Assembly: GCA_964386355.1 (NCBI GenBank)
Contig: CAYLQQ010000001.1
Coordinates: forward strand, 12,256-76,255
DNA from: an uncultured Pseudomonadales bacterium
GTDB taxonomy: Bacteria > Patescibacteriota > Microgenomatia > UBA1400 > UBA1449
Direction of reading: 5' to 3'
Length of the DNA: 64,000 nucleotides
Under the pieces are notes generated by a model that was given only the letters and a program-made list of their open reading frames with translations, did no database searches and had not been told where the DNA came from. The translations under genes and the position numbers were made by a program. Below, one piece after another: positions 2,078 through 45,725 of this stretch; the first letter of the stretch is position 1, and every line of letters starts with the position of its first letter.

Positions 2078-3256
2078 TCACAAATCCACCCGCTGTTCAC
2101 ATCGCTTACCACAAGCAAGTGAGGCAAAAAAACTGACCACCATCAAACCACCAGCCAGGATAAAGACATGAGCCATCGACCGTCCGATTACCACACCCGC
2201 AAGCAATGGCCCAATAATTTGGCCAAGTGAAGTATATCCTTGGCTAATACCCAAAATTCCCCCCTGATCCTCGGCTTTAGTATTTTGGGTTATCAAAGCA
2301 CTTAGGACCGGTAAAATCGCGGCTCCAAACACACCGCTTAATAGAACAATAATAATAAATGGGGTCACTGTGGAAACAAGCGAGATGAGCATGAGATTTA
2401 GTCCGGATAAAAGTAAAGAAACTTGCAAACTTCGTTTCATTCCCCCTAATACCTTAATGATCCACTTCACCCCTATTCCTTGCATGACAATACCTACTAA
2501 GCCTACCAAAGAAAATATTAAGCCAATTGTTCGAGCTGATAACTTTAGCACATCAACAGTAAAAGATTGGAAACCAAGTATCCAGGCGTTTTGACCTACT
2601 GAAACAATAAAGGTGATGATTAGCAGTAGTCCAACCGATGGACTGGTAAGGGCTGTGATAAGGTTGTGCGGTTTGACCAATGCCTTGCGTTCGATGTGTG
2701 TTTTATCAAGTGTTTCAGGTAAAAAGAAAAATCCAAACGCTGCACCAATAAATGCCAAAAAGGCCGAAAACCAGTACGGCGCTGTTAGACTTATACCACT
2801 CAATAAACCTCCAATTGCAGAGCCAATTAAAAACCCAAACCCAAATGCTGCTCCCAATATACCGAAATATTTGGCCCGCTCTTCCTGTTTGGTTGTATCA
2901 GTAATTACTGCTTGAGCAACGGAGTTATTACCTCCTGTCAGTCCATCCAATATACGTGCGACAAACAAAACCCAGGCTGATCCAGCCAGAGCAAACAGTA
3001 CCTGCGAAGCAGCCGTACCAAACAGACAAAAAACCAACAATGGCTTCCTCCCCCACCTATCAGACAGCCTGCCAATAATTGGCGTTGAGATAAACTGGGC
3101 AATAGAAAACGAGGCAAACAGAAATGATAATCCCTGGGCATTTATGCCAAAACGTGCTGCGTATGGGTAAAGCAATGGAATAATTACCCCATATGAAATG
3201 GCATTAATCAGCATGACTGCTGAAAGAAACATGAGGGTCTTATTTGCTTGCGGCAT
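2078..3256 (-). CDS. MFS-type transporter
   Basis: 392 aa with about 12 predicted hydrophobic helices. Has the MFS loop motif GRLSDRWGRKP between TM2 and TM3. Confidence 0.8.
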   Translation of the reverse strand: MPQANKTLMFLSAVMLINAISYGVIIPLLYPYAARFGINAQGLSFLFASFSIAQFISTPIIGRLSDRWGRKPLLVFCLFGTAASQVLFALAGSAWVLFVARILDGLTGGNNSVAQAVITDTTKQEERAKYFGILGAAFGFGFLIGSAIGGLLSGISLTAPYWFSAFLAFIGAAFGFFFLPETLDKTHIERKALVKPHNLITALTSPSVGLLLIITFIVSVGQNAWILGFQSFTVDVLKLSARTIGLIFSLVGLVGIVMQGIGVKWIIKVLGGMKRSLQVSLLLSGLNLMLISLVSTVTPFIIIVLLSGVFGAAILPVLSALITQNTKAEDQGGILGISQGYTSLGQIIGPLLAGVVIGRSMAHVFILAGGLMVVSFFASLACGKRCEQRVDL

Positions 3257-8306: not shown

Positions 8307-9359
8307 TTACTTTTTTTTGACTACCAAAGATGCAAGTGCCTCTGACCGTATCTTTAGCAAGAAACGTGGACATAATAAGTTATGAATTAACTGACCTAAT
8401 CTCCGCCACCAAAAACGAAACAAGGCAATGGGTAAAAATAATGAGGCAACTAATACTGAAACCGGAAATGCCCATAAGGGTACCGTTCTCCACGTCTTGG
8501 CATACCCTACACATCCCATACTATTTCCTTTCAAGACAGGGCGAATACAAAGTGTATAGATATTATTACCCTCTCTAGTACTGTGATCACTAAAACAGTG
8601 GTCACCATACATTTTTGCATGACTGCCATAAGCATATGCAATTTGTCTAGATCTTTTTAGATCTGTTGCATTAGCAATATCGCAGCCTCCATCATTATTA
8701 TGGCCTGTATTGAGCCATAAATAAGCAGACATGATATGGCCGAGCAGCGTTTTTGATCCAAAAGTCCCAATCAAATAAAAAGGTATATCTTCCTGTTTCC
8801 TTTGATATTGTTGGTTAAACTTTCGCATATATTCAGTGTTGCTAAACTGAAAACAAGCTTGCTGCTTTTTATGACTCTTAAAATCTATAAGCAAGTTAAA
8901 AAATGAACTCATGCGCGAACCTGTATTGGGGGTGGCAACCAAAAAAACCGAATTTATTATATTTTTTTGTATCTTCTTTTGGCTTGCTTCAAACAAATCA
9001 CTGTCAATATATGCCCGAACTATGAGCCCGCCTAAACTAAACCCGACAAGTGTAATCTGCCGTTGGGGATACACTGTAACCAACGCTTCTATTTGATCAT
9101 TTAACCATGTAGCAAGTTGTTCAATACTAGGTGTCTCTACTTTTCCATTTTTATACTGCGCAAGGTATACCTCATACCCATCTGTCCGTAACCAATCTGG
9201 CAAATCATGAAATTGGCTTTTGAAGCCAGATGAGGTAATATGTATCAGCCTTGCCTCTTCGCAACAGTCCTTGCCTGTAATAACTGATGTAGTACGATGG
9301 CCGGGAACTAAGACAATAATGGGTTTTTCTTTGGTCATAAATCTCTTATTACTAACCAT
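8307..9359 (-). CDS. alpha/beta-hydrolase, lipase/esterase-like (PGAP1-like GxSxG)
   Basis: Nucleophile elbow VGFSLGGLI. The ORF track extends to 9449, but internal ATGs at 9359 or 9338 avoid overlap with the divergent acpS, so the start is uncertain. Confidence 0.6.
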   Translation of the reverse strand: MVSNKRFMTKEKPIIVLVPGHRTTSVITGKDCCEEARLIHITSSGFKSQFHDLPDWLRTDGYEVYLAQYKNGKVETPSIEQLATWLNDQIEALVTVYPQRQITLVGFSLGGLIVRAYIDSDLFEASQKKIQKNIINSVFLVATPNTGSRMSSFFNLLIDFKSHKKQQACFQFSNTEYMRKFNQQYQRKQEDIPFYLIGTFGSKTLLGHIMSAYLWLNTGHNNDGGCDIANATDLKRSRQIAYAYGSHAKMYGDHCFSDHSTREGNNIYTLCIRPVLKGNSMGCVGYAKTWRTVPLWAFPVSVLVASLFLPIALFRFWWRRLGQLIHNLLCPRFLLKIRSEALASLVVKKK

Positions 9360-9398: not shown

Positions 9399-9764
9399 AT
9401 GCAAACTCGAATTGGAATAGACCTTGTGCATATCTCCCGCTTCCAGCATGAGATGAAACTAAATACTGAATATTTTTACCAGCATGTATTTAGCCAAGAA
9501 GAATTAAAAATACATACAAAAATAGAATCTCTGGCTGGAGCTTTTGCAGCAAAAGAGGCATGTATAAAAGCAAATCCTTCCTTTCAAGGTAAACTTAGCG
9601 ATCTGAAAATCTTAAAAACAAAAACCGGAAGACCCTACCTGGACAATCCTGCATTTTCACCTGATAATGGTTCTGTTGATATTTCAATCAGCCACGATGG
9701 TGAATATGCGATTGCAATTTGCCAGACAATTTCTCATGCAAACACTATACAGTCAACTTCATAG
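9399..9764 (+). CDS. acpS: holo-ACP synthase (4'-phosphopantetheinyl transferase, AcpS type)
   Basis: IGIDLVHISRF...ESLAGAFAAKEA...ISISHDGEYAIA matches the AcpS consensus layout. About 120 aa. Confidence 0.8.
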   Translation: MQTRIGIDLVHISRFQHEMKLNTEYFYQHVFSQEELKIHTKIESLAGAFAAKEACIKANPSFQGKLSDLKILKTKTGRPYLDNPAFSPDNGSVDISISHDGEYAIAICQTISHANTIQSTS

Positions 9765-12249
9765 TATCTTTGACTCAAATGCTGATCACGTATTTTTTGA
9801 TATTAAGCGTGGATTACGCCGCGAGCGCTTTAACGGAGCTGCGATTACAAGATATACAGACTCATTCTCAGGATTTCTGGCTTCCAAAGGTTTCAAATCT
9901 GGAGATGCATATCTGCTATGGGGACCAAATTGCCCCGAATGGGTGATAGCCTATCTAGCAGGTATCCGAAGCGGGTTTTGCACAGTTCCTATTGATGTGC
10001 GTTCCAACTGGAACACTGCCCAGGGGTATATTCACAAAACAAAACCTAAGTTTGCTATTATAAGCCGCTTTCTTCTCCCGTTTTACCAATCACAATTGCC
10101 GGTTTTTGTGCTGGAGGATATTGCCTCATATGCTGCAAGTGAAAAAACTAAACCCCAACCGGCTGACCCTGTAGAAATAGTGTTTACCTCAGGATCCAGC
10201 GGTACCCCAAAAGGTGTTATCATAACCCAGGATAACATACGTAGCCAAATGGATCAGGTGCTTGACCTGTTACCAAAGTTGCCAAAATACGAAACTGTTT
10301 CCATCCTGCCTCTCAGCCACATGTATGAACAAATGTACGGCTTATTTTTACCAATTTTTGCAGTGGGTACTGTCCACTACTTACCCAGAGTCAACCCTTT
10401 GACTATCAGGAAGGAGCTGAAACGTTCTAGCGCTACGTACCTACTCGCAGTCCCTCAAATGCTTCGGGTGATGTACGAAAATATTCTCAATAACGCCCGT
10501 ACTCAGGGGAAAGATACAGCCTTTTCCAAGCTCATCAAAATTAGTGGTTCACTACCAAAACCTATTCAAAGACGTATCTTCCGTCAAATCCATGAACAGT
10601 TCGGAGGCATGCTTGATGTGATTGCTACCGGTAGTGCCCCCCTTGAACCAAAACTAGCCAAATTTTGGGAGCATATGGGATTTAGGATTTTGGAAGGCTA
10701 TGGAGCATCTGAAACATCGGGTATGGCTACTATTTTGCCTTGGCAAAACCGTAAGTTTGGAACCGTCGGAAAACCTTCCAAGCATGCACAGCTTAAGCTT
10801 GACAAAGAACATCAAATTCTTATTAAAGGTCCTATTGTCAGCCCAGGCTACTTTGATGAAGCAGGAAAAACTCAGGAAAGCTTCCGAGACGGTTGGTATT
10901 ATACGGGAGATATTGGCAGCTTTGATGATGATGGGTTTTTAAAAATTACAGGCCGGATCAGTTCTCGCATAGTCTTAAACGATGGGACCAAAGTGTATCC
11001 TGAAGATATCGAGCGTTTACTTAATGACCAACCCGAGATACTCGATAGCTGTATAACTGAGGTTAAAAATGGAGATCATGTTATTGTGCACGCATGGGTG
11101 CTTGGACAAAACCTAAATACTTCAAAATTGTTCAAGGTTATTGAGCGTACAAATCAAAATCTTGAATCAAAACAGCAAATTTCATCATTTGAAGTTTGGC
11201 CGCAACCTGATTTCCCTAGATTACGAAGCCGCAAAGTAGACCGCCAAGCGGTACTTGCATATACCAGCACTAAACAAAATGCCCGCATCCATGATGATGC
11301 ACAAAACCAGCAAGCAAATACAAATGATTTGTATGCAATTCTCAAAGTCATTAGTGGTAAAAAAACTGTTACCAAATCTATGACCCTTGGCTCAGATCTG
11401 GGATTGGATTCACTCAGGCGAATTAATTTGGCTGCAATCGTAGAGCAGCAAATTGGGGTTGAGCTGCATGAGTTTGGTATAACAGCCCAAACGACAGTTT
11501 CACAGCTTGAGGAAATGTTGCACAGTAAATCTCCTCACGATAGTAAACACACAACTGAAGCAATCCTTCATCACTGGCGTTTTCATCGCTTTTTTTCAAA
11601 ACTACGGCCAACTTTACAGCATTTGTGTGTATTTCCTTTCCATAGCTTCTACGTCACACTCGCCATTAATGACTTTGACAAAAACATGCTTTCGAAACTG
11701 ACAGAACCAACACTACTACTTGTCAACCATCCGGGAATGTTTGATATCATCAGTATATTGCGCTGCCTACCAGCACATGTACGCTCAAAACTAGCGCTCC
11801 CCGTAACTGAAGAACGATGGGAAGATGGTAACAAAGGTATCTCAACGCTTATTGATCTGCTATTTGCCGGTTTTCCTATTGGCCAAAAAGGTGCCTGGAT
11901 GGGTATGGGTCTTGAGGCAATCGGCGAGTTGGTGGATAAGGGACACTCAATATTGCTAACCCCTGAAGGTAAAATGCAGCGTGAAGGAAAACAAAATCCA
12001 TTTTTACCAGGACTTGGATATCTTATTAAAGAATTAAAAATACCTGTTTTGATGTGTAAGATCAACGCCGATCAATACCGTACTATATGGCCAGCCCCAG
12101 CTCCCGGAAAGCTAGCTACAGACTCATCTTACTACTTGCCTAAGGCGAAAGGTACAGTTGAGCTTACTATAGCCTATGCGACAATTGATTCAAATCTAAA
12201 TAGTGATGAGCTAACAAAATCTGTTGAAAAACAATTTTCATATTTATGA
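9667..12249 (+). CDS. tri-domain fusion: fatty-acyl-AMP ligase/acyl-CoA synthetase, a phosphopantetheine carrier domain, and a PlsC-type lysophospholipid acyltransferase
   Basis: AMP-binding motifs TSGSSGTPKGV, YGASETSG and TGDIGSFDDDGFLKITGR. Carrier motif LGSDLGLDSLRRI. Acyltransferase HX4D motif VNHPGMFD and PEG motif LTPEGK. The true start is probably an internal ATG near 9697-9736, because the track ORF overlaps the acpS 3' end. Confidence 0.8.
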   Translation: MVLLIFQSATMVNMRLQFARQFLMQTLYSQLHSIFDSNADHVFFDIKRGLRRERFNGAAITRYTDSFSGFLASKGFKSGDAYLLWGPNCPEWVIAYLAGIRSGFCTVPIDVRSNWNTAQGYIHKTKPKFAIISRFLLPFYQSQLPVFVLEDIASYAASEKTKPQPADPVEIVFTSGSSGTPKGVIITQDNIRSQMDQVLDLLPKLPKYETVSILPLSHMYEQMYGLFLPIFAVGTVHYLPRVNPLTIRKELKRSSATYLLAVPQMLRVMYENILNNARTQGKDTAFSKLIKISGSLPKPIQRRIFRQIHEQFGGMLDVIATGSAPLEPKLAKFWEHMGFRILEGYGASETSGMATILPWQNRKFGTVGKPSKHAQLKLDKEHQILIKGPIVSPGYFDEAGKTQESFRDGWYYTGDIGSFDDDGFLKITGRISSRIVLNDGTKVYPEDIERLLNDQPEILDSCITEVKNGDHVIVHAWVLGQNLNTSKLFKVIERTNQNLESKQQISSFEVWPQPDFPRLRSRKVDRQAVLAYTSTKQNARIHDDAQNQQANTNDLYAILKVISGKKTVTKSMTLGSDLGLDSLRRINLAAIVEQQIGVELHEFGITAQTTVSQLEEMLHSKSPHDSKHTTEAILHHWRFHRFFSKLRPTLQHLCVFPFHSFYVTLAINDFDKNMLSKLTEPTLLLVNHPGMFDIISILRCLPAHVRSKLALPVTEERWEDGNKGISTLIDLLFAGFPIGQKGAWMGMGLEAIGELVDKGHSILLTPEGKMQREGKQNPFLPGLGYLIKELKIPVLMCKINADQYRTIWPAPAPGKLATDSSYYLPKAKGTVELTIAYATIDSNLNSDELTKSVEKQFSYL

Positions 12250-13067
12250 CGACCGAAGAATTCTCTCTATTTGTTCAAAACGGGAAATCAAACAATTGTA
12301 TACCGGTATTTGCACATCGCGGATTATCAAGCTTAGCACCAGATAATAGTATCGAGGCTTTTGAACTTGCTTTTTCTCATACGAATGTTAGCGGTGTTGA
12401 ATGCGATGTTCAACGTACAAAAGACGGCCAACTTATCATTTGTCATAACCGATCTGTTCTTATTAACCGTAAGCGTATGTGGCTTGAGGATATAACACTA
12501 TCTGATTACCGTTTAGTCAAACCCGCATCACTATCTCCCCTTTTAATAGATGTAATTAAACTCGTACAATCAAACAATAAAATACTGGATCTTGAACTTA
12601 AGAGCGCTCATATTGCTCAGAAGGTAATAGATCTGTGCAAAAGACACAAGCTCTACGATAGGGTGATTCTGACAACAATATATGAAGAAATATATTGGGA
12701 AATTAAAAAAGCTGATCCACAAGTGGCTATTATGTATGGATATCCCCGTGATAAAGGCAAGGATTTAGCCCAGCAAACATGTACCCAACCATTTGTTAAA
12801 GCGATTGTACAATTCATGAAATGGCGCGCTCCGTATACAGTGCAGGAAATATGTAATCATATTGATACACCATTTATCAGCCTATACCATAAAATTCTTT
12901 CGAAGGAATTAGTAGCTTTACTACATAAAAACAACAAGCTCTGTATCGGCTGTACGATTCGTTTACCCGGGGAAGGTTCATTTGAAGCAAAAAAAATAAT
13001 GGACAGTATGGTAAACATGGATGTTGATCTGATAAAAACAGATTTTCCACAGCTCACATTAAGCTAA
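12246..13067 (+). CDS. glycerophosphodiester phosphodiesterase (GDPD/UgpQ family)
   Basis: FAHRGLSSLAPDNSIEAFELA...ECDVQRTKDGQLIICHN matches the GDPD catalytic motifs HRG...E.D...T.DG..V..HD. Its ATG overlaps the upstream stop (ATGA at 12246-12249). Confidence 0.8.
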   Translation: MTTEEFSLFVQNGKSNNCIPVFAHRGLSSLAPDNSIEAFELAFSHTNVSGVECDVQRTKDGQLIICHNRSVLINRKRMWLEDITLSDYRLVKPASLSPLLIDVIKLVQSNNKILDLELKSAHIAQKVIDLCKRHKLYDRVILTTIYEEIYWEIKKADPQVAIMYGYPRDKGKDLAQQTCTQPFVKAIVQFMKWRAPYTVQEICNHIDTPFISLYHKILSKELVALLHKNNKLCIGCTIRLPGEGSFEAKKIMDSMVNMDVDLIKTDFPQLTLS

Positions 13068-13184: not shown

Positions 13185-13245
13185 CAAAAAAGTGAACCTC
13201 GTACTTTTGCAGGGGACAAGGTTCACTTTAGCACTTTTTTGGTGC
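13185..13245. terminator. 10-bp stem hairpin (AAGTGAACCT/AGGTTCACTT) flanked by A/T runs on both sides, possibly a bidirectional terminator
   Basis: Stems at 13191-13200 and 13220-13229 with a 19-nt loop. A T6 run follows the stem when read on either strand. Confidence 0.45.
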
Positions 13246-13458: not shown

Positions 13459-15225
13459 TTATTTGGAAACACTGATAGTTGGAGTTACCTCTCCCCATGC
13501 ACTAGCTGTTATTTTGCCATTTTTGTCAGCAAAGATTGTATATCCGGTATCATCAGATGTTCCATCTAGAGGATCACGCGGGATAGTCTGTATGTATGTA
13601 GGAACTAACGGTATAGTATCTCCCGATGTAACAAGATCAAAGCAGCTCATGCCTGCACCAATACATGTAGCTGTAGTTGGAAATGGATTACCTTCAGCGG
13701 ATCTCGGTAATGCATTATTGTCTGCCTTATATAAAGAGAGCGCTGTAATAATTACTTCCAAATCTGACTTGCGCTTCGCATCCCTGGCTTGGGCATATGA
13801 TGATCCCAAAGGCGAATCGGTAGACTGTTTTTGTTGTTGAGCAGATTGCATTGTCTGCATAATTTGTTTAACAAACTCTTCAACCAAAACTGCATTTGCG
13901 GGAGTATCGATTGGAAGAGTTTTTCCAAAATCGGTAAGGCGAAGTGCCATCACCATGAGTACTGGTTTTGTTGGTACAGCAATGCCCGAGGGAAGTCCAC
14001 TAATTGCTCCGTTTTCAGAAGTAGTTTTTTGAGGGGTTTCAAATTTCATCGAAACCATCATTTTACGCATATAATAGTCTTTTTCATCGATCCACCATGT
14101 CAGTACTACATCTTTTGCATATGTTGATATGGGTTTTTTCTCAGGCGCTGTGAGGTATTGCTGCGAATTTACACCCAGTACTGAAGACGTATTTAGTTTT
14201 GGTAACTGTGTTTCCAAAGTCTGGTCTAGTTTATCTAGTAGTTCAGAGGTAGGTGCAAACTCCATTTTATATGCGTTGCGCCCATCCATTGTATCGTGGC
14301 TCAGTTTAAGATGAGGTAAGATATCTGTTTCAAGAAGCTTGAGGAGAATGGCTTGGGTTGCCTCAGTTTCCGGTGTTTGCGCTGTACGCATCTCCTGCAA
14401 TTGCTTTTGGGCATCTGTATTGAGAGTGGAGGTGTCATAACTAATCCAGTTGGTAATTATGGGTTCAATCTGATTGGCTTCAAGTCCAACTAAGGTATAC
14501 AAAATCGGTGGCACTTTATTGATTTTAAAATACAGCATCTTATCCTTTTTACGTATATCAAAATTAAAATCTTTGGTGATTGATCCATTCAAGGAGAATT
14601 GGGGATTGGCTGTGTCACTCACATCTGAGTAACCTGATATCTCAATATCGATACTATTGCCACCTACTAGGCTCTGGAAATCATCCGAAGATGCGGCCAG
14701 TGAAAAATTTAGACTACTTTTGAGAACCTTCTGATGAGCCAAAGCCGATTTCATTAAGATCACTTTTGGCGGCTTGGGTAAAAGTGGATTTGTAAGAACA
14801 AGCTTGTCTGCTATCAAACTGATTTGCTTATTAGGAATAGTAACCTTACCAGCTGATATTAGATACGCAAGCGCGTTAACAGAAGTTGCAAGTACAAGCA
14901 ATATACCAACTACAGCACCAACTATGAGAGGCAGCTTGCTCCTCTTGTGTGTTGTTGAAGGCAAGGAAGAGCCATCTGCCCCGATATTTCTGATAGTTTG
15001 GGGTGAGAATTGCCTAGTTTGATTCGTTTGAGAAGCTAAACTAGAGGGTTCTAAGACTGGTGAAGCTATCACCGAAACTTCTGGTATCGATATATACCAC
15101 CGATGAGCTTCTTCCAACTGCTCAGCATTCCACCCTGTTGACTTCAGTTGGGAAGATACGTTATCCCATAACAATTGGGATTTTTTACAAGAATCAAGAA
15201 ATGCAATTGAAGCAGTATCCAACAT
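13459..15225 (-). CDS. membrane-anchored protein with a C-terminal type IV pilin/pseudopilin-like domain
   Basis: One hydrophobic helix (LPLIVGAVVGILLVLATSV). The C-terminal ARDAKRKSDLEVIITALSLYKADNNALP resembles the conserved segment that follows the prepilin helix in GspG/PilA-type pilins, but here it sits at the C-terminal end of a 588-aa protein. Confidence 0.45.
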   Translation of the reverse strand: MLDTASIAFLDSCKKSQLLWDNVSSQLKSTGWNAEQLEEAHRWYISIPEVSVIASPVLEPSSLASQTNQTRQFSPQTIRNIGADGSSLPSTTHKRSKLPLIVGAVVGILLVLATSVNALAYLISAGKVTIPNKQISLIADKLVLTNPLLPKPPKVILMKSALAHQKVLKSSLNFSLAASSDDFQSLVGGNSIDIEISGYSDVSDTANPQFSLNGSITKDFNFDIRKKDKMLYFKINKVPPILYTLVGLEANQIEPIITNWISYDTSTLNTDAQKQLQEMRTAQTPETEATQAILLKLLETDILPHLKLSHDTMDGRNAYKMEFAPTSELLDKLDQTLETQLPKLNTSSVLGVNSQQYLTAPEKKPISTYAKDVVLTWWIDEKDYYMRKMMVSMKFETPQKTTSENGAISGLPSGIAVPTKPVLMVMALRLTDFGKTLPIDTPANAVLVEEFVKQIMQTMQSAQQQKQSTDSPLGSSYAQARDAKRKSDLEVIITALSLYKADNNALPRSAEGNPFPTTATCIGAGMSCFDLVTSGDTIPLVPTYIQTIPRDPLDGTSDDTGYTIFADKNGKITASAWGEVTPTISVSK

Positions 15226-15268
15226 ACGTACTAGTATAAAGGTGCTTTTTAGTGATATGCAAATGCAA

Positions 15269-16213
15269 TTACTTTTTCCTTAGTATTGCTACAAACATGG
15301 GGTCAAACCCCTCTTTTGGAAGTACCCTAAGTACCTTGTTCTGATTAAAACCACCTTCGGCCTGATTATGGAAAAGTGATGAACTTCTTACAGGAGTATC
15401 CCAACTTATCAGCTCAAGCTGGTCTCCTTTTTTCCTAAGAAACTCCCCTACTGTTCCCTCGTTTTCAAGCGTATTGACCGCACAGGTTGAGTAAACCATA
15501 GTGCCGCCAGGTTTGAGAGCCAGGAGCAAGCCCCCCAACAATGCCAATTGTCGCTGGTGCAACGTTTTGACCCGGTTTGGTGTCCATTGATTAAGATATT
15601 TGGAATCGTTCCATACATGTTTTTCGCTTGAGCAAGGAGCATCCAGTAAAATCTTATCGAAATGGTTAGGGTACTGTTTAAAAATTGTTTCTGCCAGCCT
15701 ACCCCATATCTCTACAGTTGACACCTGATATTCATCAAACGTATTTTTCATGCGCCTACGACGAGCTAGTGAGAGATCGTTTGCAATGATTGCTATGGGA
15801 AAAGAAGATTTTTGCTCGTTACATCTATAAACAACCCCCAAAGTCTTCCCTCCGGGGGCTGCACAAGCATCCAAAATGAGCTCACCTGGTTTTGCATCAA
15901 GCGCAACAACCGGTACTAGTGATGAGATATTCATGGGGTACAAAAGTTTCTCTTCAAAGCCGGGAACAGTTTCTCCAAAGGGAATTTCAGGCGGCCAGTA
16001 CAAAGCCTCGTTAAACCACTCAACCCTGCGCCAACTTAAACCAGACTTTCCCCACAGAAACCGTATCTGTTCCTCATATTCGGGATTGAAAATAAAAACG
16101 GGAGGATTTTTTTGTTCAAAACTAGTGACAAGTTCGGTAAAACCATCTTCGCCAAATTGTTGTGAGTAATAGCTGACAAATGCTTCTTTACCTTGTAGTT
16201 TCTGTTTTTTCAT
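15269..16213 (-). CDS. RsmB/NOL1/NOP2/Sun-family RNA (cytosine-C5) methyltransferase
   Basis: SAM motif ILDACAAPGGKT, catalytic DAPCS and YSTCA motifs. The track ORF extends to 16321, but the ATG at 16213 or 16234 is the more plausible start given the divergent neighbour. Confidence 0.75.
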   Translation of the reverse strand: MKKQKLQGKEAFVSYYSQQFGEDGFTELVTSFEQKNPPVFIFNPEYEEQIRFLWGKSGLSWRRVEWFNEALYWPPEIPFGETVPGFEEKLLYPMNISSLVPVVALDAKPGELILDACAAPGGKTLGVVYRCNEQKSSFPIAIIANDLSLARRRRMKNTFDEYQVSTVEIWGRLAETIFKQYPNHFDKILLDAPCSSEKHVWNDSKYLNQWTPNRVKTLHQRQLALLGGLLLALKPGGTMVYSTCAVNTLENEGTVGEFLRKKGDQLELISWDTPVRSSSLFHNQAEGGFNQNKVLRVLPKEGFDPMFVAILRKK

Positions 16214-16274
16214 ACCTGTCTTCCAATTAACCATCAAACAATTTTTGTTTGCTTTATAATATCTATTATACGCT

Positions 16275-17045
16275 ATGGATACTAAAGAACCAGAAAAAAC
16301 ACAACCTATCCGTCTAAACAAATACCTTGCTAACCTAGGTATTGCTTCAAGACGCAGTATCGATGAGTTTATTTCTCAAGGTAAAATAAAAATTAATGGA
16401 AAAATACTCAAAGATTTGGGAATAAAAGTTGATCCACAAAAGGATGATATTGAGGTTAACGGTAAAAAGATCGCTCAGCAAACACAAGAGCTGACTTACA
16501 TTATTCTCAATAAACCAAGAGGTGTTTTATCGACTGCTGAAGATGAATCAGGCAGAGTAAGCGTTGTTGATTTGGTCAAGCTTCCAATGCGGCTGTATCC
16601 CGTAGGCAGATTGGATAAGGAGTCCCACGGTTTGATCCTGCTCACGAATGACGGCGATTTGGCTTACAAACTTACCCATCCCAAATTTCATGTCCCAAAA
16701 GTATACCGCGCCAAGATGAGAGGATTTGTAACCAATGAGAATATTGCAAAAATGAGACGGGGTGTCTATCTGGAAGACGGGAAAACTGCACCAGCTAAAG
16801 TTAGAACCATCTATCGTAACAGCAATGAAACCATGTTGGAAATTACATTGTATGAGGGCAAAAAACGCCAGATCCGCCGTATGAGCGCCCACCTCCATAT
16901 AAACCTCCTCGACCTGCAACGCATCGCCATTGGAGCAATTCCATTGGGAGAACTGCAAATGGGTAAGTGGAGAAAGCTGAGTGAAAATGAAGTAGCTAGC
17001 TTAAAAAACTGTGCACTTAACCAACAACAAAGAACCAACAACTAA
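16275..17045 (+). CDS. pseudouridine synthase, RsuA/RluB family, with an S4 domain
   Basis: S4 RNA-binding N-terminus (IRLNKYLANLGIASRR) and catalytic motif VGRLDKESHGLILLTNDG. Confidence 0.8.
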   Translation: MDTKEPEKTQPIRLNKYLANLGIASRRSIDEFISQGKIKINGKILKDLGIKVDPQKDDIEVNGKKIAQQTQELTYIILNKPRGVLSTAEDESGRVSVVDLVKLPMRLYPVGRLDKESHGLILLTNDGDLAYKLTHPKFHVPKVYRAKMRGFVTNENIAKMRRGVYLEDGKTAPAKVRTIYRNSNETMLEITLYEGKKRQIRRMSAHLHINLLDLQRIAIGAIPLGELQMGKWRKLSENEVASLKNCALNQQQRTNN

Positions 17046-17056
17046 CAACCCATCTC

Positions 17057-17635
17057 CTATTCTTCTTTCTCAAACTCCTTATTCTTTTCCATGTCTTTTT
17101 CAATCAACCGGCGTAAATATACTGCCCGTGGCATTTTTTTCTTTTTGGCGATCCAATCCAAATAGTTTACAATATTTGGAGAAACAAAGAAATTAAACCG
17201 AACATCCATTTGGTCTTTAGTGATATCTATATAATCTTCTAAAACATCTCTCAGCGTGTCTCTCGTATATTCTACAATATATAAACTATCTTCTCCTTCA
17301 TCGCGTAACAGATGAGGCTCACAACCCGGCATATGTATGGCAATTACTTGTTTACCATTCGCTATTGCAGAGGCAATTTCTTGTCCAACACCAAAACTTG
17401 GTGTGGTAACCTCAGCAATAACCAAATCTGCATATTTTTTTCGTTTTGTCATGATCCTTTGAACTGCTAAAGCTTGTTCTTCAGTTTGATTTTTTATATC
17501 GTCAGCTTTTTTATTAATCAGATGATCTGCAAACACGTTATGACCCAAATCTTGTAGTTTTTTTATAATTAATGCATAGTTTTCTCTTATTTCTGATGTA
17601 GCCCTTGAAATTGGTCCGGTAAAATATATTTTCAT
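17057..17635 (-). CDS. nucleoside 2-deoxyribosyltransferase-like domain fused to a C-terminal ribbon-helix-helix-like segment
   Basis: MKIYFTGP...VIAEVTTPSFGVGQEIASAIANGKQVIAI fits the NDT/LOG-like Rossmann layout. The C-terminal VRFNFFVSPNIVNYLDWIAKKKKMPRAVYLRRLIEKDM has the beta-alpha-alpha pattern of CopG/Arc RHH domains. Confidence 0.5.
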   Translation of the reverse strand: MKIYFTGPISRATSEIRENYALIIKKLQDLGHNVFADHLINKKADDIKNQTEEQALAVQRIMTKRKKYADLVIAEVTTPSFGVGQEIASAIANGKQVIAIHMPGCEPHLLRDEGEDSLYIVEYTRDTLRDVLEDYIDITKDQMDVRFNFFVSPNIVNYLDWIAKKKKMPRAVYLRRLIEKDMEKNKEFEKEE

Positions 17636-17662
17636 AGTTAAAATTATAATAAATGAGCTTAT

Positions 17663-18361
17663 TTATCTTTTCACAACAAAGCAGTCTTCACATCTAGGTT
17701 CATATGATACTACAGATGATGGAGGAAGCAACTCAGGCTCATCAATTGTGGCTGCTTTACCATCAATAAGCCTTTGTGAATATTTATAGGCTTTTCTTCC
17801 ACACATTTGGCATGTAGCATACAAATTATATGTTTTGTTAGCTTTAAATGTTAATAAGTCGCTTAAAATAAATTCACCACCCTGACTCGTATATAATAAG
17901 CCCATTGCAATTAACCAACCTCCACGCTCAATAAATAGCTTAATTTCATACATTAAGTAGCTCTGTAAATTTGCCGGGGTAAATTGGATTTCATCTATAA
18001 AAATAACATCATTTTCGTGGAACATTTTTTCAATATCACTTTTATTTGAAAATGAAGTTATATGAAGAGACAAACCAGATCTTGATAGGATTTTATCCTT
18101 GGGAACATCTGCTCTATCTAATAAAGGCTGACTAAAGTAAGCTTTTCGATTGCCAATTTTTTGTTTTTTTAAGTTTTCGTTTAAATAAATTGCAACAATA
18201 GATTTACCACTCCTCTCAGGACCATATATAAAAATAATGCCCCCCTCGTCTATAGGCGATCCTGCAATCATATCAGTAATTTCGTCAGCAGTATTTTTTG
18301 CATTTTTTAATACAAAAGCATATATACCGTTAACTTTAGATTTAGGTTCAATTTGTTTCAT
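17663..18361 (-). CDS. tdk: thymidine kinase
   Basis: P-loop IYGPERSGKS, VIFIDEIQF in place of DEAQFF, and a C-terminal zinc ribbon CQMCG...CEDC. Confidence 0.8.
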   Translation of the reverse strand: MKQIEPKSKVNGIYAFVLKNAKNTADEITDMIAGSPIDEGGIIFIYGPERSGKSIVAIYLNENLKKQKIGNRKAYFSQPLLDRADVPKDKILSRSGLSLHITSFSNKSDIEKMFHENDVIFIDEIQFTPANLQSYLMYEIKLFIERGGWLIAMGLLYTSQGGEFILSDLLTFKANKTYNLYATCQMCGRKAYKYSQRLIDGKAATIDEPELLPPSSVVSYEPRCEDCFVVKR

Positions 18362-18384
18362 AGATAATTTATGTTAAATAATGG

Positions 18385-18990
18385 CTATAGTTCGCGCCTA
18401 CCCTCAAAAGCCCGGGAAAGAGTCGTTTCATCCGCATACTCCAGGTCTGCACCTGTAGGCAAACCTCTTCCCAAACGAGTTATGCGGGTAAATATCCCCT
18501 CTTTTTCTAGCAAGCGTTGTAAATATAAAGCGGTAGCCTCACCCTCCATTGTCGGGTTGGTGGCTACCACGATTTCGGTGACTGTATCACCAGATTTTAT
18601 TCTCGGTATTATATCATACAAATGTAATTGGTCAGGGCCTATATTATCTAAGGGGTTTATAGTGCCGTGCAAAACATGATACAGACCTAAGTAGGCGCCG
18701 CTTTTTTCAATAGCCATAATATCCAGGGGTTGTTCAACGACACAGATTATTGTTTTGTCACGCCCTTCATCACTGCAAATGGGACAGGGATCAGTTTCAG
18801 AAATATTAAAACAGGTTGAACACATTTTTGTATTGCGTTTAAGATCTGCTACAGACTTAGAAAAAAAATCCAATTGCTCTTGAGGAACGTGAAGCAAATA
18901 GTATGTCAGACGCTGGGCTGTTTTTGGCCCGATTCCCGGAAGTTTATGAAATGCATCGATACAGTTTTGAATAGATTTTGGTGTCTTCAT
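18385..18990 (-). CDS. recR: recombination protein RecR
   Basis: HhH motif LPGIGPKTAQRL, a C4 zinc finger, and a Toprim region with VVEQPLD. Confidence 0.9.
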   Translation of the reverse strand: MKTPKSIQNCIDAFHKLPGIGPKTAQRLTYYLLHVPQEQLDFFSKSVADLKRNTKMCSTCFNISETDPCPICSDEGRDKTIICVVEQPLDIMAIEKSGAYLGLYHVLHGTINPLDNIGPDQLHLYDIIPRIKSGDTVTEIVVATNPTMEGEATALYLQRLLEKEGIFTRITRLGRGLPTGADLEYADETTLSRAFEGRREL

Positions 18991-19082
18991 GGGAATAGCT
19001 ATTTATCTGTCTAGATTAAAAAAGTCTCATCACCAATCTCCTAATACTATGTTTAAATACGCATCATTTAATTAGCTGCTAT

Positions 19083-20051
19083 CTAAACAAAGTTTTCTCT
19101 TAAACGGTTATCAAAAATTGGCCGGGAAAACGTGTGATTTGTTGTTCCATATTCTTCTAAAACATATGATGCTGCAGTTGCTCCCATCTGACCCGCCTCT
19201 ATTAGAGTTTTACCATTGAGATATCCACTTAAAAATCCAGCAATATAAGCATCTCCAATTCCTGTGGGATCTTGAATTTGACGCGGCCTGGCTATACCAA
19301 CCACGATTTCTTCTCTTCCTTTTTGATGAATAACTGAGCCTTTTTCACCAACTGTTTTTATGACTATACTACCCCGATCTAATAGCTGTTCTTCAGTCAA
19401 ACCCGCTTTTTCAAGCATTTGGGCAATTTCGTAGTCATTTCCTATGATAATATTTGCACCTGTAATGCCGGCGAGCATATCCTCACGACTAAAATTGGGG
19501 GTTTGTTGAGCCGGAGCAAACAAGTAACGCAATTTAAGATTGTTCGCTTCATGGATAAACTTAACCATGGCCTCTGATGAGGTTGGAGCTAAGACAAGAA
19601 AAGCGTCTTCCGGTGCAACCACAAGTGTATCTAGAGTATTTTCAAGGGAAAGTTCCGTGTCCCGTTTCATAGCTCCCTCATAAAAACCTGAAATTTGACA
19701 ATCATCCTGGTCAGTTATGACAACAAAGCTCGCTGAATAATCATAGGTAATTTTTTGGATAAACTGCGTATTTACATTATTTTTCTCTAAAAAATGTACG
19801 TAATCCGCCCCATCTTTACCGATACTTGCCAAACAGACAACCTTTTCACCCAAGAGCCCAAGGTTATAGCAAATGTTTCCCGCTGTGCCTCCTTGATTTT
19901 TCTCTAAATGATCAATGGTGAACGAGGTTGATATGATATGACTCATACCAGGTTTTATTTGATCAGCAATTGCACCTGGGTAGAGCATGATCTGATCAAA
20001 AGCGAGTGAGCCAGTGACAATAATATGCATATTCCTGTTTATCATCTTCAA
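19083..20051 (-). CDS. PfkB-family carbohydrate/nucleoside kinase (ribokinase/adenosine kinase-like)
   Basis: PfkB signature DPTGIGDAYIAGFL near the C-terminus and a GG dipeptide region near the N-terminus. Substrate not assignable. Confidence 0.7.
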   Translation of the reverse strand: MKMINRNMHIIVTGSLAFDQIMLYPGAIADQIKPGMSHIISTSFTIDHLEKNQGGTAGNICYNLGLLGEKVVCLASIGKDGADYVHFLEKNNVNTQFIQKITYDYSASFVVITDQDDCQISGFYEGAMKRDTELSLENTLDTLVVAPEDAFLVLAPTSSEAMVKFIHEANNLKLRYLFAPAQQTPNFSREDMLAGITGANIIIGNDYEIAQMLEKAGLTEEQLLDRGSIVIKTVGEKGSVIHQKGREEIVVGIARPRQIQDPTGIGDAYIAGFLSGYLNGKTLIEAGQMGATAASYVLEEYGTTNHTFSRPIFDNRLRENFV

Positions 20052-28353: not shown

Positions 28354-29466
28354 TTAACCGCCCCTGACTATTCGCAATACATCTGCAACGGTAATTAGTA
28401 CCATCAAGGTAACCAGAATTGCCATGCCAGCCATATTGATGTAAGCCTCGATCTTGGGCTTGATACGCTTGCCAATAGCTTTTTCCAGCATAATAAAGGC
28501 AAATCGTCCGCCATCCAGAGCCGGAAATGGCAGTATGTTTATGACAGCCAGATTGATCGATAAGATCCCCATAAATTTGATAACCGGAAGTATACCCTCT
28601 GCGGCAACTGTTTTGGTAATTTCATAGATCCCGACCACTCCACGAACTTCTGGTTTTTGTCCGGCAAATAAGCCAGATATCATCTGCCATAGACCCTCAA
28701 ACATCATCTTAGTCCAAGCAAACGCCTCTTCCAGGCCCACCTTGGTGCCTCTAAAGGGCATCTGCCAGGCAGGGTAAAACACATTGTCATAATTTGAAAC
28801 AGCCACACCAACTGCCCCTTCGCCTTCCGGAGGATTAACTCGGGGAGTTAGTTCAACAGCTACTTGCTGACTGTTTCTCTCAAGTAAAATAGCAACTGGC
28901 TGACCGGCTTTTGTTTTTAGATACTCAACAAATTCTGCTGTTTTAGCTTGGGTAAGCCCATCTATAGCCAATACCTTATCACCAGTTTGTATGCCCGCAG
29001 CCTGGGCTGGAGAATTAGGAGCTATTCCATCAACCACAATATAATCAACTTCCTGAGGTATGCCCCGTAATGAGTAAATTACAGAAAAACATACTATAGC
29101 CAAAACCATATTCATAAATACGCCGGCTAAAATAATTGCTACCCGTTGTTTTTTTGATTTGTTAAAAAATGCCCGCGGGTCTTTTGAGCCTTCAGCCTCA
29201 GCCTCCTGCTCGCCAAACATCCGCACAAATCCGCCAAAGGGTAACCAATTGATCGAATAAATTGTCTCGCCTACCTTTTTACCTATAGCTCTAGGAGGAT
29301 ATCCAAACCCAAATTCCTCAACTTTTACCCCTGTCCATTTGGCAACCAAGAAATGCCCCAGCTCATGGATAAGAACCACAATTGATAAAATAATTAAAAA
29401 TGTCAGAATTGGTGGTAACACAAAATACAGTATGAAGTATGAAGTATGAAGTATGTCCTTTCCCAC
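28354..29466 (-). CDS. rseP: RIP zinc metalloprotease RseP (site-2 protease with PDZ domain)
   Basis: HELGHF zinc motif inside the first TM helix, a PDZ region, and a C-terminal LDGG motif. An alternative GTG start at 29425 is possible. Confidence 0.85.
   Translation of the reverse strand: MGKDILHTSYFILYFVLPPILTFLIILSIVVLIHELGHFLVAKWTGVKVEEFGFGYPPRAIGKKVGETIYSINWLPFGGFVRMFGEQEAEAEGSKDPRAFFNKSKKQRVAIILAGVFMNMVLAIVCFSVIYSLRGIPQEVDYIVVDGIAPNSPAQAAGIQTGDKVLAIDGLTQAKTAEFVEYLKTKAGQPVAILLERNSQQVAVELTPRVNPPEGEGAVGVAVSNYDNVFYPAWQMPFRGTKVGLEEAFAWTKMMFEGLWQMISGLFAGQKPEVRGVVGIYEITKTVAAEGILPVIKFMGILSINLAVINILPFPALDGGRFAFIMLEKAIGKRIKPKIEAYINMAGMAILVTLMVLITVADVLRIVRGG
29431..29455. repeat. tandem heptamer repeat (TATGAAG x3.5); related copies sit at 6403-6430 and 58260-58290
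   Basis: Direct reading shows GAAGTAT/GAAGTAA heptamers in tandem at three separate loci. Confidence 0.6.
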
Positions 29467-29500
29467 TTCTTACTACGTACAACTTACTACCTGCAACTAT

Positions 29501-30070
29501 TTATACTTTCATTATCTCTTCTTCTTTTTCCTTAATGGCGTTGTCAATGGTTTCGATAGCGTTATCAGTGATCTTCTGTAATTCCTCAAGATCACGTTTG
29601 ATCATATCTTCGGATATACCAGCACCCTTCTCGTCTTCAATTAATTTTTTGTAGTGTGATCGTTCAGCTCTCACCATCGCCCTATGTGATTCAGCTTTTT
29701 GATTTATCAGTTTAACCAAATCCCTTCTAGTTTCCTCAGTTAAAGCAGGAATATTGATCCTGATTATTTCTCCGCTAACATTTGGATTTAACTTCAGATC
29801 AGACTCAGCAATACCCCGAACCAGATCTTTCATGATCGACTTATCCCAGGGTGTAATTACGATTGTTGCAGCATCAGGAGCAGAAATACTAGCAAGTTCC
29901 CTGACTTCCATCCAGCTCTGGTAGACATTCACTTTTAGGTTCTCAACTAAACTCGGTTTTGCCCGTCCGGTCTTTACTGTAGCTAAATCTTGACTAAAAA
30001 GTGTGGTAATTTTACCTGTTTTTTCTTCAAATTCTTGTAAGAATTGATTCATATGTATAATTGAATGCAA
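29501..30070 (-). CDS. frr: ribosome recycling factor
   Basis: About 185 aa. LKVNVYQSWMEVRELASISAPDAATIVITPWD and ALTEETRRDLVK match the RRF consensus. The start may be the internal ATG at 30052. Confidence 0.9.
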   Translation of the reverse strand: MHSIIHMNQFLQEFEEKTGKITTLFSQDLATVKTGRAKPSLVENLKVNVYQSWMEVRELASISAPDAATIVITPWDKSIMKDLVRGIAESDLKLNPNVSGEIIRINIPALTEETRRDLVKLINQKAESHRAMVRAERSHYKKLIEDEKGAGISEDMIKRDLEELQKITDNAIETIDNAIKEKEEEIMKV

Positions 30071-39758: not shown

Positions 39759-39844
39759 TAAAATAAATAAGCAAAGAAGATTACAACCCAGCCATATTCC
39801 GGATTTGGATTGTATAAAGATGAAATAGAAGTGTCAATGATAGA

Positions 39845-40618: not shown

Positions 40619-40654
40619 TATGACTCCTACCTCCCGCTTTCAGACTACCCCTGT

Positions 40655-41260: not shown

Positions 41261-41329
41261 GGCAGGTAAAAAAGTATGTTATGGAGAATTATCATAGGAG
41301 AAAATGAAGAGTTGTGCAAAGGGGAAAAG

Positions 41330-43531: not shown

Positions 43532-43536
43532 AAAAT

Positions 43537-43550
43537 AGAATTTAAATTCT
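43537..43550. promoter_or_regulatory. perfect 14-bp palindrome AGAATTTAAATTCT, 5 nt upstream of the 733-aa gene start codon
   Basis: Exact inverted repeat lying between the putative extended -10 (TGTATAAT on the minus strand, 43601-43608) and the ATG at 43531. Confidence 0.4.
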
Positions 43551-43600
43551 GTGCGTACTTTATCAAAAAGTGTGTGAGAATTACGTTAAATTATTGAAGT

Positions 43601-43608
43601 ATTATACA
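43601..43608 (-). promoter_or_regulatory. putative extended -10 promoter element (TGTATAAT) internal to the island
   Basis: The TGn-TATAAT match reads on the minus strand about 70 nt upstream of the 733-aa gene ATG. No properly spaced -35. Confidence 0.3.
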
Positions 43609-43650
43609 TCTGCTTGTCAAATGAAGCAAAATATTAGAAACACACATAGT

Positions 43651-45720: not shown

Positions 45721-45725
45721 ATTAC

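Follow-up and report, generated by a model that had tools for sequence, protein, structure and literature searches.

The Escherichia coli protein Aas (b2836) is a 2-acylglycerophosphoethanolamine acyltransferase/acyl-ACP synthetase with LplT as its partner. Its acyltransferase half precedes the adenylating half, and the carrier that it uses is soluble ACP. The domain order FAR-ACS-ACP-AGPAT is found in Myxococcus xanthus ElbD (MXAN_1528), a protein of ether-lipid biosynthesis; in vitro assays confirmed its ACS and ACP functions but could not demonstrate acyltransferase activity (PMC9131029). FAR-less “ElbD-like” homologues are mentioned for other phyla (PMC9131029). Surveys of fatty acyl-AMP ligases (FAALs) that deal with FadD32-type domains, mainly from Actinomycetota and Pseudomonadota, have also noted FAAL-LPLAT fusions (PMC8460268; PMC12820801). 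The fusion architecture described here belongs to a large family already present in this literature and is neither new nor unusual. What is distinctive to the clade of the present locus, which belongs to Patescibacteria, is the cassette in which the fusion gene stands between acpS and a gene for a glycerophosphodiester phosphodiesterase (GDPD).

Organization of the Cassette

The locus lies in a 64-kb window (the whole stretch of DNA analyzed) from a small bacterium of symbiotic type; the ribosomal protein S2 of the window is closest to that of Candidatus Beckwithbacteria. Three consecutive, overlapping reading frames occupy positions 9399-13067 of the forward strand: acpS (9399..9764, 121 aa), the fusion gene for an AMP-binding domain, a carrier and a PlsC-type acyltransferase (9736..12249, 837 aa from the ATG at 9736), and the GDPD gene (12246..13067, 273 aa). 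The start of the fusion gene is ambiguous, with candidate ATGs at 9667, 9697, 9706, and 9736. Gene callers select 9706 (847 aa) and the N-termini of homologues favor 9736 (837 aa); the overlap with acpS (29-98 nt) is present whichever ATG is chosen. At the other end, the fusion stop and the GDPD start share the ATGA at 12246-12249, as verified in the sequence. The initial annotation was thus right in placing acpS directly 5' of the fusion and the GDPD across its stop codon, and all the motifs that it quoted are found on the forward strand in a single frame. Translational coupling of the GDPD to the fusion gene is supported.

No transmembrane segments were found in the fusion protein. Its full-length AF2 model (pLDDT 84.3, pTM 0.77) contains three folded domains, with linkers of low confidence between them (residues 517-530 and 598-602). 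Like Aas, the protein unites an ANL-type acyl-activating domain with an HX4D/PEG LPLAT domain, and the earlier analogy with Aas holds for both halves (hhalign E 5e-37 for the AMP domain, with 26% identity to the Aas C-terminal domain, and 6.5e-11 for the acyltransferase against the Aas N-terminal domain). By analogy, the logic would also be shared, passing from free fatty acid to acyl-S-phosphopantetheine to lysolipid. The reverse domain order and the in-cis carrier were correctly recognized as well: the adenylating domain comes first here, the carrier is embedded between the two halves, and the partners are AcpS and a GDPD. No LplT-like transporter adjoins the cassette; the MFS gene found at a distance of 6 kb is of a Tet-like type.

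The Adenylation Domain

The adenylate-forming (ANL, acyl-CoA-synthetase-like) domain (9736..11283, forward strand, residues 1-516) matches Pfam AMP-binding at 1.2e-49. Its A3 motif is VFTSGSSGTPKGV (TSGSSGTPKG at 10186-10215), its A5 motif EGYGASETSG, and its A10 lysine is Lys500 (codon 11233-11235). No variation is seen across 38 homologues at T151, S152, G153, P158, K159, G160, Y322, G323, E326, and K500. The fold neighbors are MenE, MatB, FadD13, and 4CL, and the modeled domain superposes best on MenE and 4-chlorobenzoate ligase in their thioester-forming states (rmsd 3.7-3.9 Å).

The domain had been called a fatty-acyl-AMP ligase. In a functional sense the term can stand for a loader of the carrier, and the protein resembles the surveyed FAAL-LPLAT fusions in joining an adenylating domain dependent on a phosphopantetheine arm to an AGPAT-like acyltransferase. 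Unlike in those fusions, however, the domain has its closest solved relatives among CoA ligases, for instance FadD13, MatB, and MenE. Identity as a FadD32-type FAAL was rejected, since FadD13 matches at 2.6e-64 and the solved FAAL 3kxw at 5.6e-42.

Which carboxylic acid does the domain activate? A fatty acid seems probable. The best family models of the fusion protein (NCBIfam) are those of long-chain fatty-acid ligases and Aas, every score being far below its cutoff (144 bits against 1221 for the Aas equivalog), and homologues carry the JGI label “long-chain acyl-CoA synthetase.” Alternatively, a short, dicarboxylic or aromatic acid could be activated by what would be a minimal NRPS/PKS-like loading and offloading enzyme that makes a small acylated metabolite. 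The A-T organization is NRPS-like, and the top neighbors include MenE, malonyl- and oxalyl-CoA synthetases, 4-coumarate ligases, and NRPS A-PCP modules; the structural neighbors span ligases for malonate, oxalate, aryl acids, o-succinylbenzoate, and fatty acids. However, the offloading domain has a lipid acyltransferase fold with a preceding amphipathic helix, as in PlsC, the conserved neighbors encode a lipase and a GDPD, and no further biosynthetic genes lie near the cassette. A metabolite enzyme of this kind is therefore very improbable.

The Embedded Carrier and its AcpS

The carrier domain (11323..11526, forward strand, residues 530-597) presents its phosphopantetheine attachment site, Ser559 (codon 11410-11412), within LGSDLGLDSL. 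In the Pfam comparison that the initial annotation had proposed for the three domains, only AMP-binding passes in the window protein itself; PP-binding (18.7 bits, cutoff 20.8) and Acyltransferase (20.9 bits, cutoff 23) both fall slightly short. At the level of the family the carrier is recovered: PP-binding is matched by 35 of the 38 aligned homologues, D558 and S559 are invariant in all of them, and the C-terminal family profile matches solved ACPs (AcpM and FAS-type) at about 1e-10. The AF2 model folds this region as a helical bundle with ACPs among its fold matches. Profiles and model together confirm the predicted carrier domain.

The product of acpS is a group-I (AcpS-type) 4'-phosphopantetheinyl transferase (Pfam ACPS 4.6e-11, 43.2 bits, cutoff 25; TIGR00556 61.8 bits, cutoff 45.35). 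FAS-type ACPs are known clients of such transferases, and the resemblance of the embedded carrier to them argues for priming by AcpS. Of the 61 loci whose fusion gene is full-length, 11 have an acpS within 400 nt, among them all six of the window's clade and L090 from more distant Patescibacteria; the adjacency also occurs in Spirochaetia and in some Chloroflexota. A role for AcpS as a dedicated neighbor of the fusion protein is supported.

The Acyltransferase Domain

The PlsC/LPLAT-type domain (11554..12246, forward strand, residues 607-837) carries the NHPGMFD block at 11725-11745 (NH665x4D670, His665 codon 11728-11730) and the TPEG block with P743-E-G745 at 11962-11970. Pfam Acyltransferase is matched by 38 of 38 aligned homologues, in which N664, H665, P743, and G745 are invariant, position 670 is D or E, and position 744 is E or Q. 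Thermotoga maritima PlsC (5KYM) is the best solved-structure match by both profile and fold: the C-terminal family profile finds it at 4.5e-11, and a Foldseek search with the C-terminal part as modeled by AF2 (pLDDT 88) retrieves it first, followed by GPAT1, PatA, and LpxM, with ACPs also matched. E. coli PlsC is matched by hhalign at 1e-7. As in PlsC, a long amphipathic helix (residues 618-639) precedes the core. The HX4D/PEG acyltransferase read from the motifs is accordingly confirmed as a predicted domain by family profiles and by the model. It differs from PlsC in being fused to its own acyl donor and in lacking a conserved EGTR arginine.

This last difference bears on the acceptor, for which a lysophospholipid is one candidate. 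Just 16 of 38 members have K or R directly following PEG, and a phosphate-bearing acceptor is therefore not assured. It is possible that the acyltransferase modifies a non-phospholipid acceptor (a glycolipid, a lipoteichoic-acid-type anchor, an amino-lipid or a cell-surface polymer) in the manner of PatA, LpxL/M or OlsA. The appearance of PatA and LpxM among the fold matches agrees with such a role, as does the missing GDPD partner outside the window's clade. Nevertheless, PlsC, GPAT1, and the Aas acyltransferase rank highest in the sequence and fold comparisons, the surroundings of the cassette contain no genes for glycosyltransferases or lipid A, and the overlap of the GDPD start with the fusion stop in all six clade loci points to a glycerophospho-substrate. 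An acceptor of another kind is thus unlikely.

The GDPD and the Lipolytic Neighbor

The GDPD matches its Pfam family at 4.7e-17 (63.3 bits, cutoff 23.6) and the solved GDPDs 2pz0 (4.8e-12) and 1o1z, with which its HRG, ExD, His, and IE(I/L)K motifs align.

Divergent to the cassette lies a gene for a lipase/esterase-like alpha/beta hydrolase (8307..9338, reverse strand, 343 aa), outside the stretch covered by the initial annotation yet within the conserved neighborhood. The protein has a GFSLGG nucleophile elbow, a single C-terminal hydrophobic helix or transmembrane segment (residues 285-311), and weak Pfam matches to Abhydrolase_1, Lipase_2, DUF676, PGAP1, and Palm_thioest. Orthologues occupy the equivalent position in two other loci (L083 and L084), a GDSL lipase replaces it there in L088, and in L082 an alpha/beta hydrolase is found directly beyond the GDPD.

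Conservation and Distribution

The order acpS-fusion-GDPD is kept in all six loci of the window's clade, with frames that overlap or abut, and the overlap between fusion stop and GDPD start is 4 nt in every one. These loci share 43-76% identity and their flanks are otherwise dissimilar; five of the six have a lipolytic gene within about 1 kb, coding for either a GDSL lipase or an alpha/beta hydrolase of lipase-like type. Retention of the cassette between differing flanks, together with the lipolytic neighbor, strengthens the lipid-salvage reading first proposed from the motifs, in which the substrate and the acceptor are the presumptive parts. In the loci compared beyond this clade, the fusion gene has no GDPD partner.

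The fusion architecture itself is found in about 680 clusters at 50% identity, mostly from Chloroflexota and also from Patescibacteria and Spirochaetia. Chloroflexota is also a phylum from which BLAST homologues of ElbD have been reported (PMC11868695), and it is the commonest phylum of the fusion family. Could the protein then be an ElbD-type enzyme without its reductase, making a specialized lipid (an ether or other non-standard glycerolipid) on a pathway-specific acceptor instead of serving salvage? The ACS-ACP-AGPAT core on a single polypeptide is common to both proteins, a likeness of architecture only, and it includes the two ElbD activities confirmed in vitro; the FAR-less homologues in other phyla fit the same idea. 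However, a reductase (NAD_binding_4/FAR) is found in neither the window protein nor any of the 38 aligned members, which makes an ether bond by the ElbD-type route impossible, and elbB, elbC, elbE or agps-like genes are absent from a neighborhood whose conserved members are acpS, the GDPD, and lipases. Such an enzyme is improbable, slightly more so than a non-phospholipid acceptor.

Proposed Function

On balance, the cassette is somewhat more easily read as a self-contained scavenging and re-acylation module that places scavenged fatty acids onto glycerol-phosphate lipids. AcpS would move 4'-phosphopantetheine from CoA onto Ser559 of the carrier. The ANL domain would adenylate a carboxylic acid in free form, with fatty acids of medium or long chain length the likeliest substrates, and in its thioester-forming conformation pass the acyl group to the carrier thiol. 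The C-terminal PlsC/LPLAT domain would then receive the acyl thioester from the carrier and, through its His665/Asp670 dyad, may use it at the surface of the membrane to O-acylate an acceptor based on glycerol phosphate, candidates being a lysophospholipid, lysophosphatidic acid or glycerol-3-phosphate. The GDPD may supply or process the polar part by converting glycerophosphodiesters to glycerol-3-phosphate or, alternatively, act as a lysophospholipase D yielding lysophosphatidate. Foreign lipids could be the source from which the lipase-type hydrolase, presumably membrane-anchored, frees fatty acids and lysolipids.

No fab, acc, pls or cds genes, and no second ACP or LPLAT, were found within the 64-kb window, which is the extent to which the earlier remark that no FAS genes are visible holds. 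CPR bacteria are reported to be unable to make membrane lipids and to be enriched in lysolipids (PMC7242380). Both this deficit and the gene content of the window count in favor of the module, as does the FAS-type character of its carrier. In the family at large the picture may differ: most members belong to Chloroflexota with genomes of 2-4 Mb, where the conserved neighbor is a different one, a metallo-beta-lactamase-fold gene, so the ancestral role need not have been scavenging without FAS. In the window's clade, the cassette would probably serve a scavenging lifestyle.

Organization of the cassette

The cassette occupies positions 9399-13067 of the window and consists of three plus-strand genes that follow one another without gaps. 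The first, acpS (9399-9764, +), encodes a 121-residue protein that passes both the Pfam ACPS model (PF01648, 43.2 bits against a cutoff of 25) and TIGR00556 (61.8 against 45.35), and the second encodes the fusion protein (9736-12249, +). Four ATG codons (9667, 9697, 9706, and 9736) are candidate starts for the fusion, and each of them overlaps the end of acpS at 9764. Public gene calls begin at 9706, giving 847 residues; the N-termini of the homologues agree with 9736 (837 residues), from which residues are numbered here. At its 3' end the fusion gene reads TTT TCA TAT TTA TGA, and the ATGA at 12246-12249 supplies the start codon of the third gene, a GDPD (12246-13067, +; Pfam GDPD, PF03009, 63.3 bits against a cutoff of 23.6). 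The initial annotation had placed acpS directly upstream of the fusion and had described the overlap between the fusion stop and the GDPD start, and both arrangements are borne out; all the motifs it quoted are found in the fusion reading frame. A single terminator-like hairpin lies at 13231-13245, 164 nt past the GDPD stop, and the counts from a promoter and terminator scan were at chance level.

The acpS product is of the single-domain AcpS type of about 120 residues, with equivalog holo-ACP synthase models scoring below their cutoffs. Transferases of this type have FAS-type ACPs among their known clients, and priming of the fusion carrier by AcpS would fit because the carrier resembles those proteins. 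In the GDPD, alignment to 2pz0 reveals the HRG, ExD, and IExK motifs together with the catalytic His. Its best NCBIfam match, weak and partial, is to a staphylococcal lysophosphatidylglycerol phospholipase D model.

Domains of the fusion protein

The AMP-binding domain of the window fusion is unambiguous (Pfam, 1.2e-49). When this one sequence is searched, the two other domains fall just under their gathering scores, with 18.7 bits against 20.8 for PP-binding (PF00550) and 20.9 against 23 for Acyltransferase (PF01553). Since failed profile searches were what the initial annotation had said would tell against a carrier, the domains were examined at the level of the family. A protein search with the fusion returned thousands of matches; of the 120 best, nearly all have lengths of 820-850 residues and the precomputed annotation PF00501, PF00550, and PF01553. 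Among 38 aligned full-length homologues (31-76% identity), Acyltransferase is matched in all 38 and PP-binding in 35, in the Pfam order AMP-binding, PP-binding, Acyltransferase.

Conservation in this alignment follows the three activities. The residues of the A3 loop, the YG.(T/S)E motif, and the A10 lysine (K500) are invariant, as are D558-S559 in the carrier and N664-H665, P743, and G745 in the acyltransferase, where position 670 is D or E and position 744 is E or Q. A profile built from the last 316 residues matches both Thermotoga maritima PlsC (5kym, 4.5e-11) and FAS-type ACPs (AcpM, mitochondrial ACPs, and AcpP, at about 1e-10 to 1e-6). The AlphaFold2 model of the C-terminal region (pLDDT 88.4) retrieves PlsC (5kym) first in Foldseek, followed by GPAT1, PatA, and LpxM, and its carrier helical bundle matches ACP folds with TM-scores, normalized by target length, of 0.7-0.78. 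The three-domain fusion proposed from the sequence is thus upheld by family-wide domain matches and by profile and fold matches to PlsC and ACP. In the full-length model (pLDDT 84.3, pTM 0.77) three folded domains are joined by low-confidence linkers at residues 517-530 and 598-602. No transmembrane segment is predicted in the fusion, and, as in PlsC, the acyltransferase core has a long helix ahead of it (residues 618-639). As to the phosphate-binding arginines of PlsC, the family does not conserve the one in the EGTR block: 16 of the 38 members have K or R directly after PEG, and "TR" is absent. Where PlsC has its block II arginine, the aligned residue is Q, R, or K.

What kind of adenylating enzyme is the N-terminal domain? 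The initial annotation had called it a fatty-acyl-AMP ligase. The adenylating domain itself stands, and its assignment as a FadD32-type FAAL is ruled out, since both profile and fold rankings favor CoA ligases. In the profile search, oxalate-CoA ligase (4e-67), FadD13 (2.6e-64), MatB, and MenE rank at the top, far above the solved FAAL 3kxw (5.6e-42), and the fold neighbors of the modeled domain are the same CoA ligases. The model superposes best, at 3.7-3.9 A, on thioester-forming conformations. Several homologues carry the JGI name "long-chain acyl-CoA synthetase," and a fatty acid is the most likely candidate substrate. The one hint that the acyl-AMP may be passed to the carrier phosphopantetheine, with CoA rejected, is the presence of the carrier in cis.

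Comparison with Aas and ElbD

The analogy with Escherichia coli Aas is real at both catalytic halves, since each half aligns with its Aas counterpart (aas and plsC sequences were taken from strain MG1655). In hhalign, the family alignment for the adenylation half matches the C-terminal domain of Aas (probability 99.9, E 5.2e-37, 415 columns, 26% identity) and that for the acyltransferase half matches Aas residues 1-220 (probability 97.1, E 6.5e-11). The acyltransferase also matches E. coli PlsC at 1e-7, the match to the Aas N-terminus being slightly better. The two proteins differ in that Aas places its acyltransferase before the adenylation domain and uses soluble ACP, whereas the fusion runs from adenylation domain through embedded carrier to acyltransferase, and the fusion misses the Aas equivalog model PRK08633 widely (144 bits against a cutoff of 1221). 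There is no LplT-like transporter near the cassette, so that the partnership of Aas with LplT has no counterpart here; an MFS gene at 2078-3256 was considered as LplT and rejected, being Tet/Bcr-like by NCBIfam and having no significant similarity to E. coli LplT. Judged from its sequence, the fusion would function most like Aas.

A second relative by architecture is Myxococcus xanthus ElbD, a FAR-ACS-ACP-AGPAT protein; according to a review (PMC9131029), nearly all ElbD-like proteins from other phyla are without FAR, and they are unstudied. The fusion shares with ElbD the ACS-ACP-AGPAT core on a single polypeptide, a likeness in architecture only. Unlike ElbD, it has no FAR domain and starts directly at AMP-binding; no FAR or NAD-binding Pfam match was found in the window fusion or in the 38 homologues. 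The gene partners differ as well, ElbD having partners of the elbB/elbE type and the fusion having acpS, GDPD, and lipases as neighbors. Fusions of FAAL-like domains to lysophospholipid acyltransferases have been mentioned in passing (PMC8460268), and "ElbD homologues" have been counted by BLAST in Chloroflexota in environmental surveys (PMC11868695; bioRxiv 10.64898/2026.06.23.733905).

A conserved neighborhood in one clade

The fusion has 11 close relatives (43-76% identity), and the contigs of five of them were compared with the window, giving six clade loci. At all six, acpS abuts or overlaps the fusion start and the GDPD start overlaps the fusion stop by 4 nt. The genes beyond the cassette vary, and a lipolytic-type gene lies about 1 kb or less from it at five of the six loci. 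In the window and at two relative loci (L083 and L084) this is a divergent alpha/beta hydrolase some 50-60 nt upstream of acpS, which in the window (8307-9338, -) has a GFSLGG elbow and, at its C-terminus, a membrane helix. At a fourth locus (L082) an alpha/beta hydrolase lies just 3' of the GDPD and is followed by a second GDPD, and at a fifth (L088) the divergent gene upstream encodes a GDSL lipase. That different lipase families fill this one position speaks for selection on lipolytic function rather than on a particular protein. Homologues of the window hydrolase in a word-indexed search are limited to itself and one relative, and its sequence matches in the PDB are marginal (3lp5 at 0.003).

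Outside the clade the arrangement loosens. A more distant Patescibacterium (36% identity) keeps the acpS-fusion pair and not the GDPD. Among 61 loci with a full-length fusion gene, acpS lies within 400 nt at 11, and GDPD lies within the same distance at six, the clade loci only. A literature search found nothing specific on such a cassette in Patescibacteria or Saccharibacteria.

Two further observations concern the surroundings of the cassette. In a relative with 47% identity (L089:1000-4156, -), the stretch 1-5 kb upstream of the cassette contains genes for a CDP-alcohol phosphatidyltransferase, a PEP-utilizer-domain protein, and a UbiA-family prenyltransferase; this locus thus encodes head-group chemistry near the salvage genes. 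In the window, a 588-residue protein (13459-15225, -) with one transmembrane helix (residues 94-126) and no Pfam or NCBIfam match is syntenic beside the cassette at L083, where it has 585 residues; its C-terminal "ARDAKRKSDL..I..AL..Y" presumably resembles motifs of pilin-like proteins.

Distribution of the A-ACP-AT family

The fusion belongs to a widespread and already noticed family (A-ACP-AT or A-ACP-AGPAT) that has no characterized member. With a carrier and acyltransferase profile and a threshold of E <= 1e-30, an exhaustive HMMER search yielded 679 clusters (50% identity); the majority of the full-length members have 820-850 residues and carry the didomain at the C-terminus. Near-full-span matches in GTDB species genomes come overwhelmingly from Chloroflexota (Dehalococcoidia, SAR202, and Anaerolineae), the other carriers being Levybacteria, Gottesmanbacteria, Spirochaetia, and two Gammaproteobacteria. 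Ktedonobacteria and one further Patescibacterium appear in the protein search. Most of the family resides in genomes that are not reduced, and the Dehalococcoidia carriers have chromosomes of 2-4.6 Mb. In a rough neighbor-joining tree without support values, the six clade sequences group beside another Patescibacterial sequence, near Levybacteria and Ktedonobacteria and apart from the large Dehalococcoidia group.

Other arrangements occur elsewhere in the family. In a scan of genome contigs, a gene for a metallo-beta-lactamase-fold protein of about 244 residues, a conserved partner distinct from the Patescibacterial acpS and GDPD, lies about 70 nt upstream of the A-ACP-AT gene on the same strand at 23 loci, nearly all from Dehalococcoidia or other Chloroflexota (for example L010:5190-5924, +; Pfam Lactamase_B, 1.4e-26). 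Some Chloroflexota carry paralogous full-length pairs within 6 kb, as at L040 (257-2830 and 5992-8481) and L026 (3570-6047 and 8812-11340, with acpS in between). The gene is split into two or three reading frames in a Gottesmanbacteria MAG (L055, 5809-7143 and 7118-8350) and at L054 and L066, which could be due to a frameshift, to pseudogene formation, or to misassembly.

The genome that carries the cassette

The window comes from a Patescibacterial, Microgenomatia-like genome, because its ribosomal protein S2 shares 79% identity with one from Candidatus Beckwithbacteria, nucleotide-salvage genes are many, and lipid-synthesis genes are absent from the 64 kb. No second ACP or LPLAT occurs in the window. 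Genes for nucleotide salvage and dNTP metabolism are densely packed at 15000-20000 and 39800-58300, which fits a host-dependent lifestyle; among their products are two thymidine-kinase-domain proteins, a nucleoside deoxyribosyltransferase, a PfkB kinase, a PNP-family phosphorylase, a phosphoribosyltransferase, guanylate kinase, DHFR, ThyA, and a class I/II-type RNR. At 28354-30070 (-), frr (ribosome recycling factor) is directly followed by an RseP-like M50 protease with no uppS or cdsA in between, an order which we take to differ from that in many bacteria; cdsA is absent from the whole 64-kb window. An otherwise housekeeping region contains a 945-residue VirD4/TraG-like coupling ATPase (33086-35923, +; DUF87/HerA, TrwB_AAD_bind, and TraG-D_C). 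The 64 kb contain no tRNA genes and no Rfam families at the gathering threshold.

A candidate route for lipid salvage

The domains, catalytic residues, gene coupling, and synteny of the cassette are observed; from them we infer which substrates and acceptor it uses, in what sequence the reactions run, and what role it has in the cell. AcpS would prime Ser559 of the fusion. The ANL domain would adenylate a free fatty acid and then form a thioester on the in-cis phosphopantetheine, and the loaded carrier would swing to the PlsC-type domain, where, at the membrane surface, His665 and Asp670 may catalyze the O-acylation of an acceptor based on glycerol phosphate. The coupled GDPD could convert glycerophosphodiesters to glycerol-3-phosphate or act as a lysophospholipase D, while the anchored hydrolase would release fatty acids and lysolipids. 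Two observations speak against this reading: the EGTR arginine of PlsC is missing from most members, and the family resides mostly in genomes that are not reduced. The salvage operon envisaged in the initial annotation is in this form retained for its domains, its coupling to acpS and GDPD, and its likeness to Aas, and given up for the reading of its first domain as a true FAAL.

In a stronger version, which we regard as rather unlikely, the cassette would provide the clade with a complete FAS-independent route to membrane lipids. AcpS would be kept only for the embedded carrier in a genome without soluble ACP, the lipase and GDPD would degrade host lipids, releasing free fatty acids along with glycerol-3-phosphate or lysophosphatidate, and the fusion would re-esterify these products. 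If so, mainly mono-acyl (lyso) lipids could result, which would explain the lysolipid enrichment reported for CPR bacteria.

CPR bacteria are reported to be unable to make membrane lipids and to be enriched in lysolipids, and one study detected neither ACP-producing nor ACP-requiring machinery in the CPR genomes that it covered (PMC7242380). The combination of AcpS with an embedded ACP is worth testing for this latter reason, and it would give a FAS-less genome a reason to retain acpS. What this analysis contributes is the conserved acpS-fusion-GDPD cassette, with its lipase, in one Patescibacterial clade, and its candidate role in CPR lipid salvage. It bears on the question of where Patescibacteria obtain their membranes in the absence of fatty-acid and phospholipid synthesis, and because AcpS and a fusion of carrier, acid-activating, and PlsC-type domains adjoin a GDPD and a lipase, the cassette is a concrete, clonable candidate for such a route. 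More broadly, the A-ACP-AT family comprises about 680 clusters, is dominant in Dehalococcoidia and SAR202, and is at present read in surveys, as "ElbD homologues," to indicate ether-lipid potential. If the form without a reductase proves to re-acylate lipids in the manner of Aas, those ether-lipid inferences would change.
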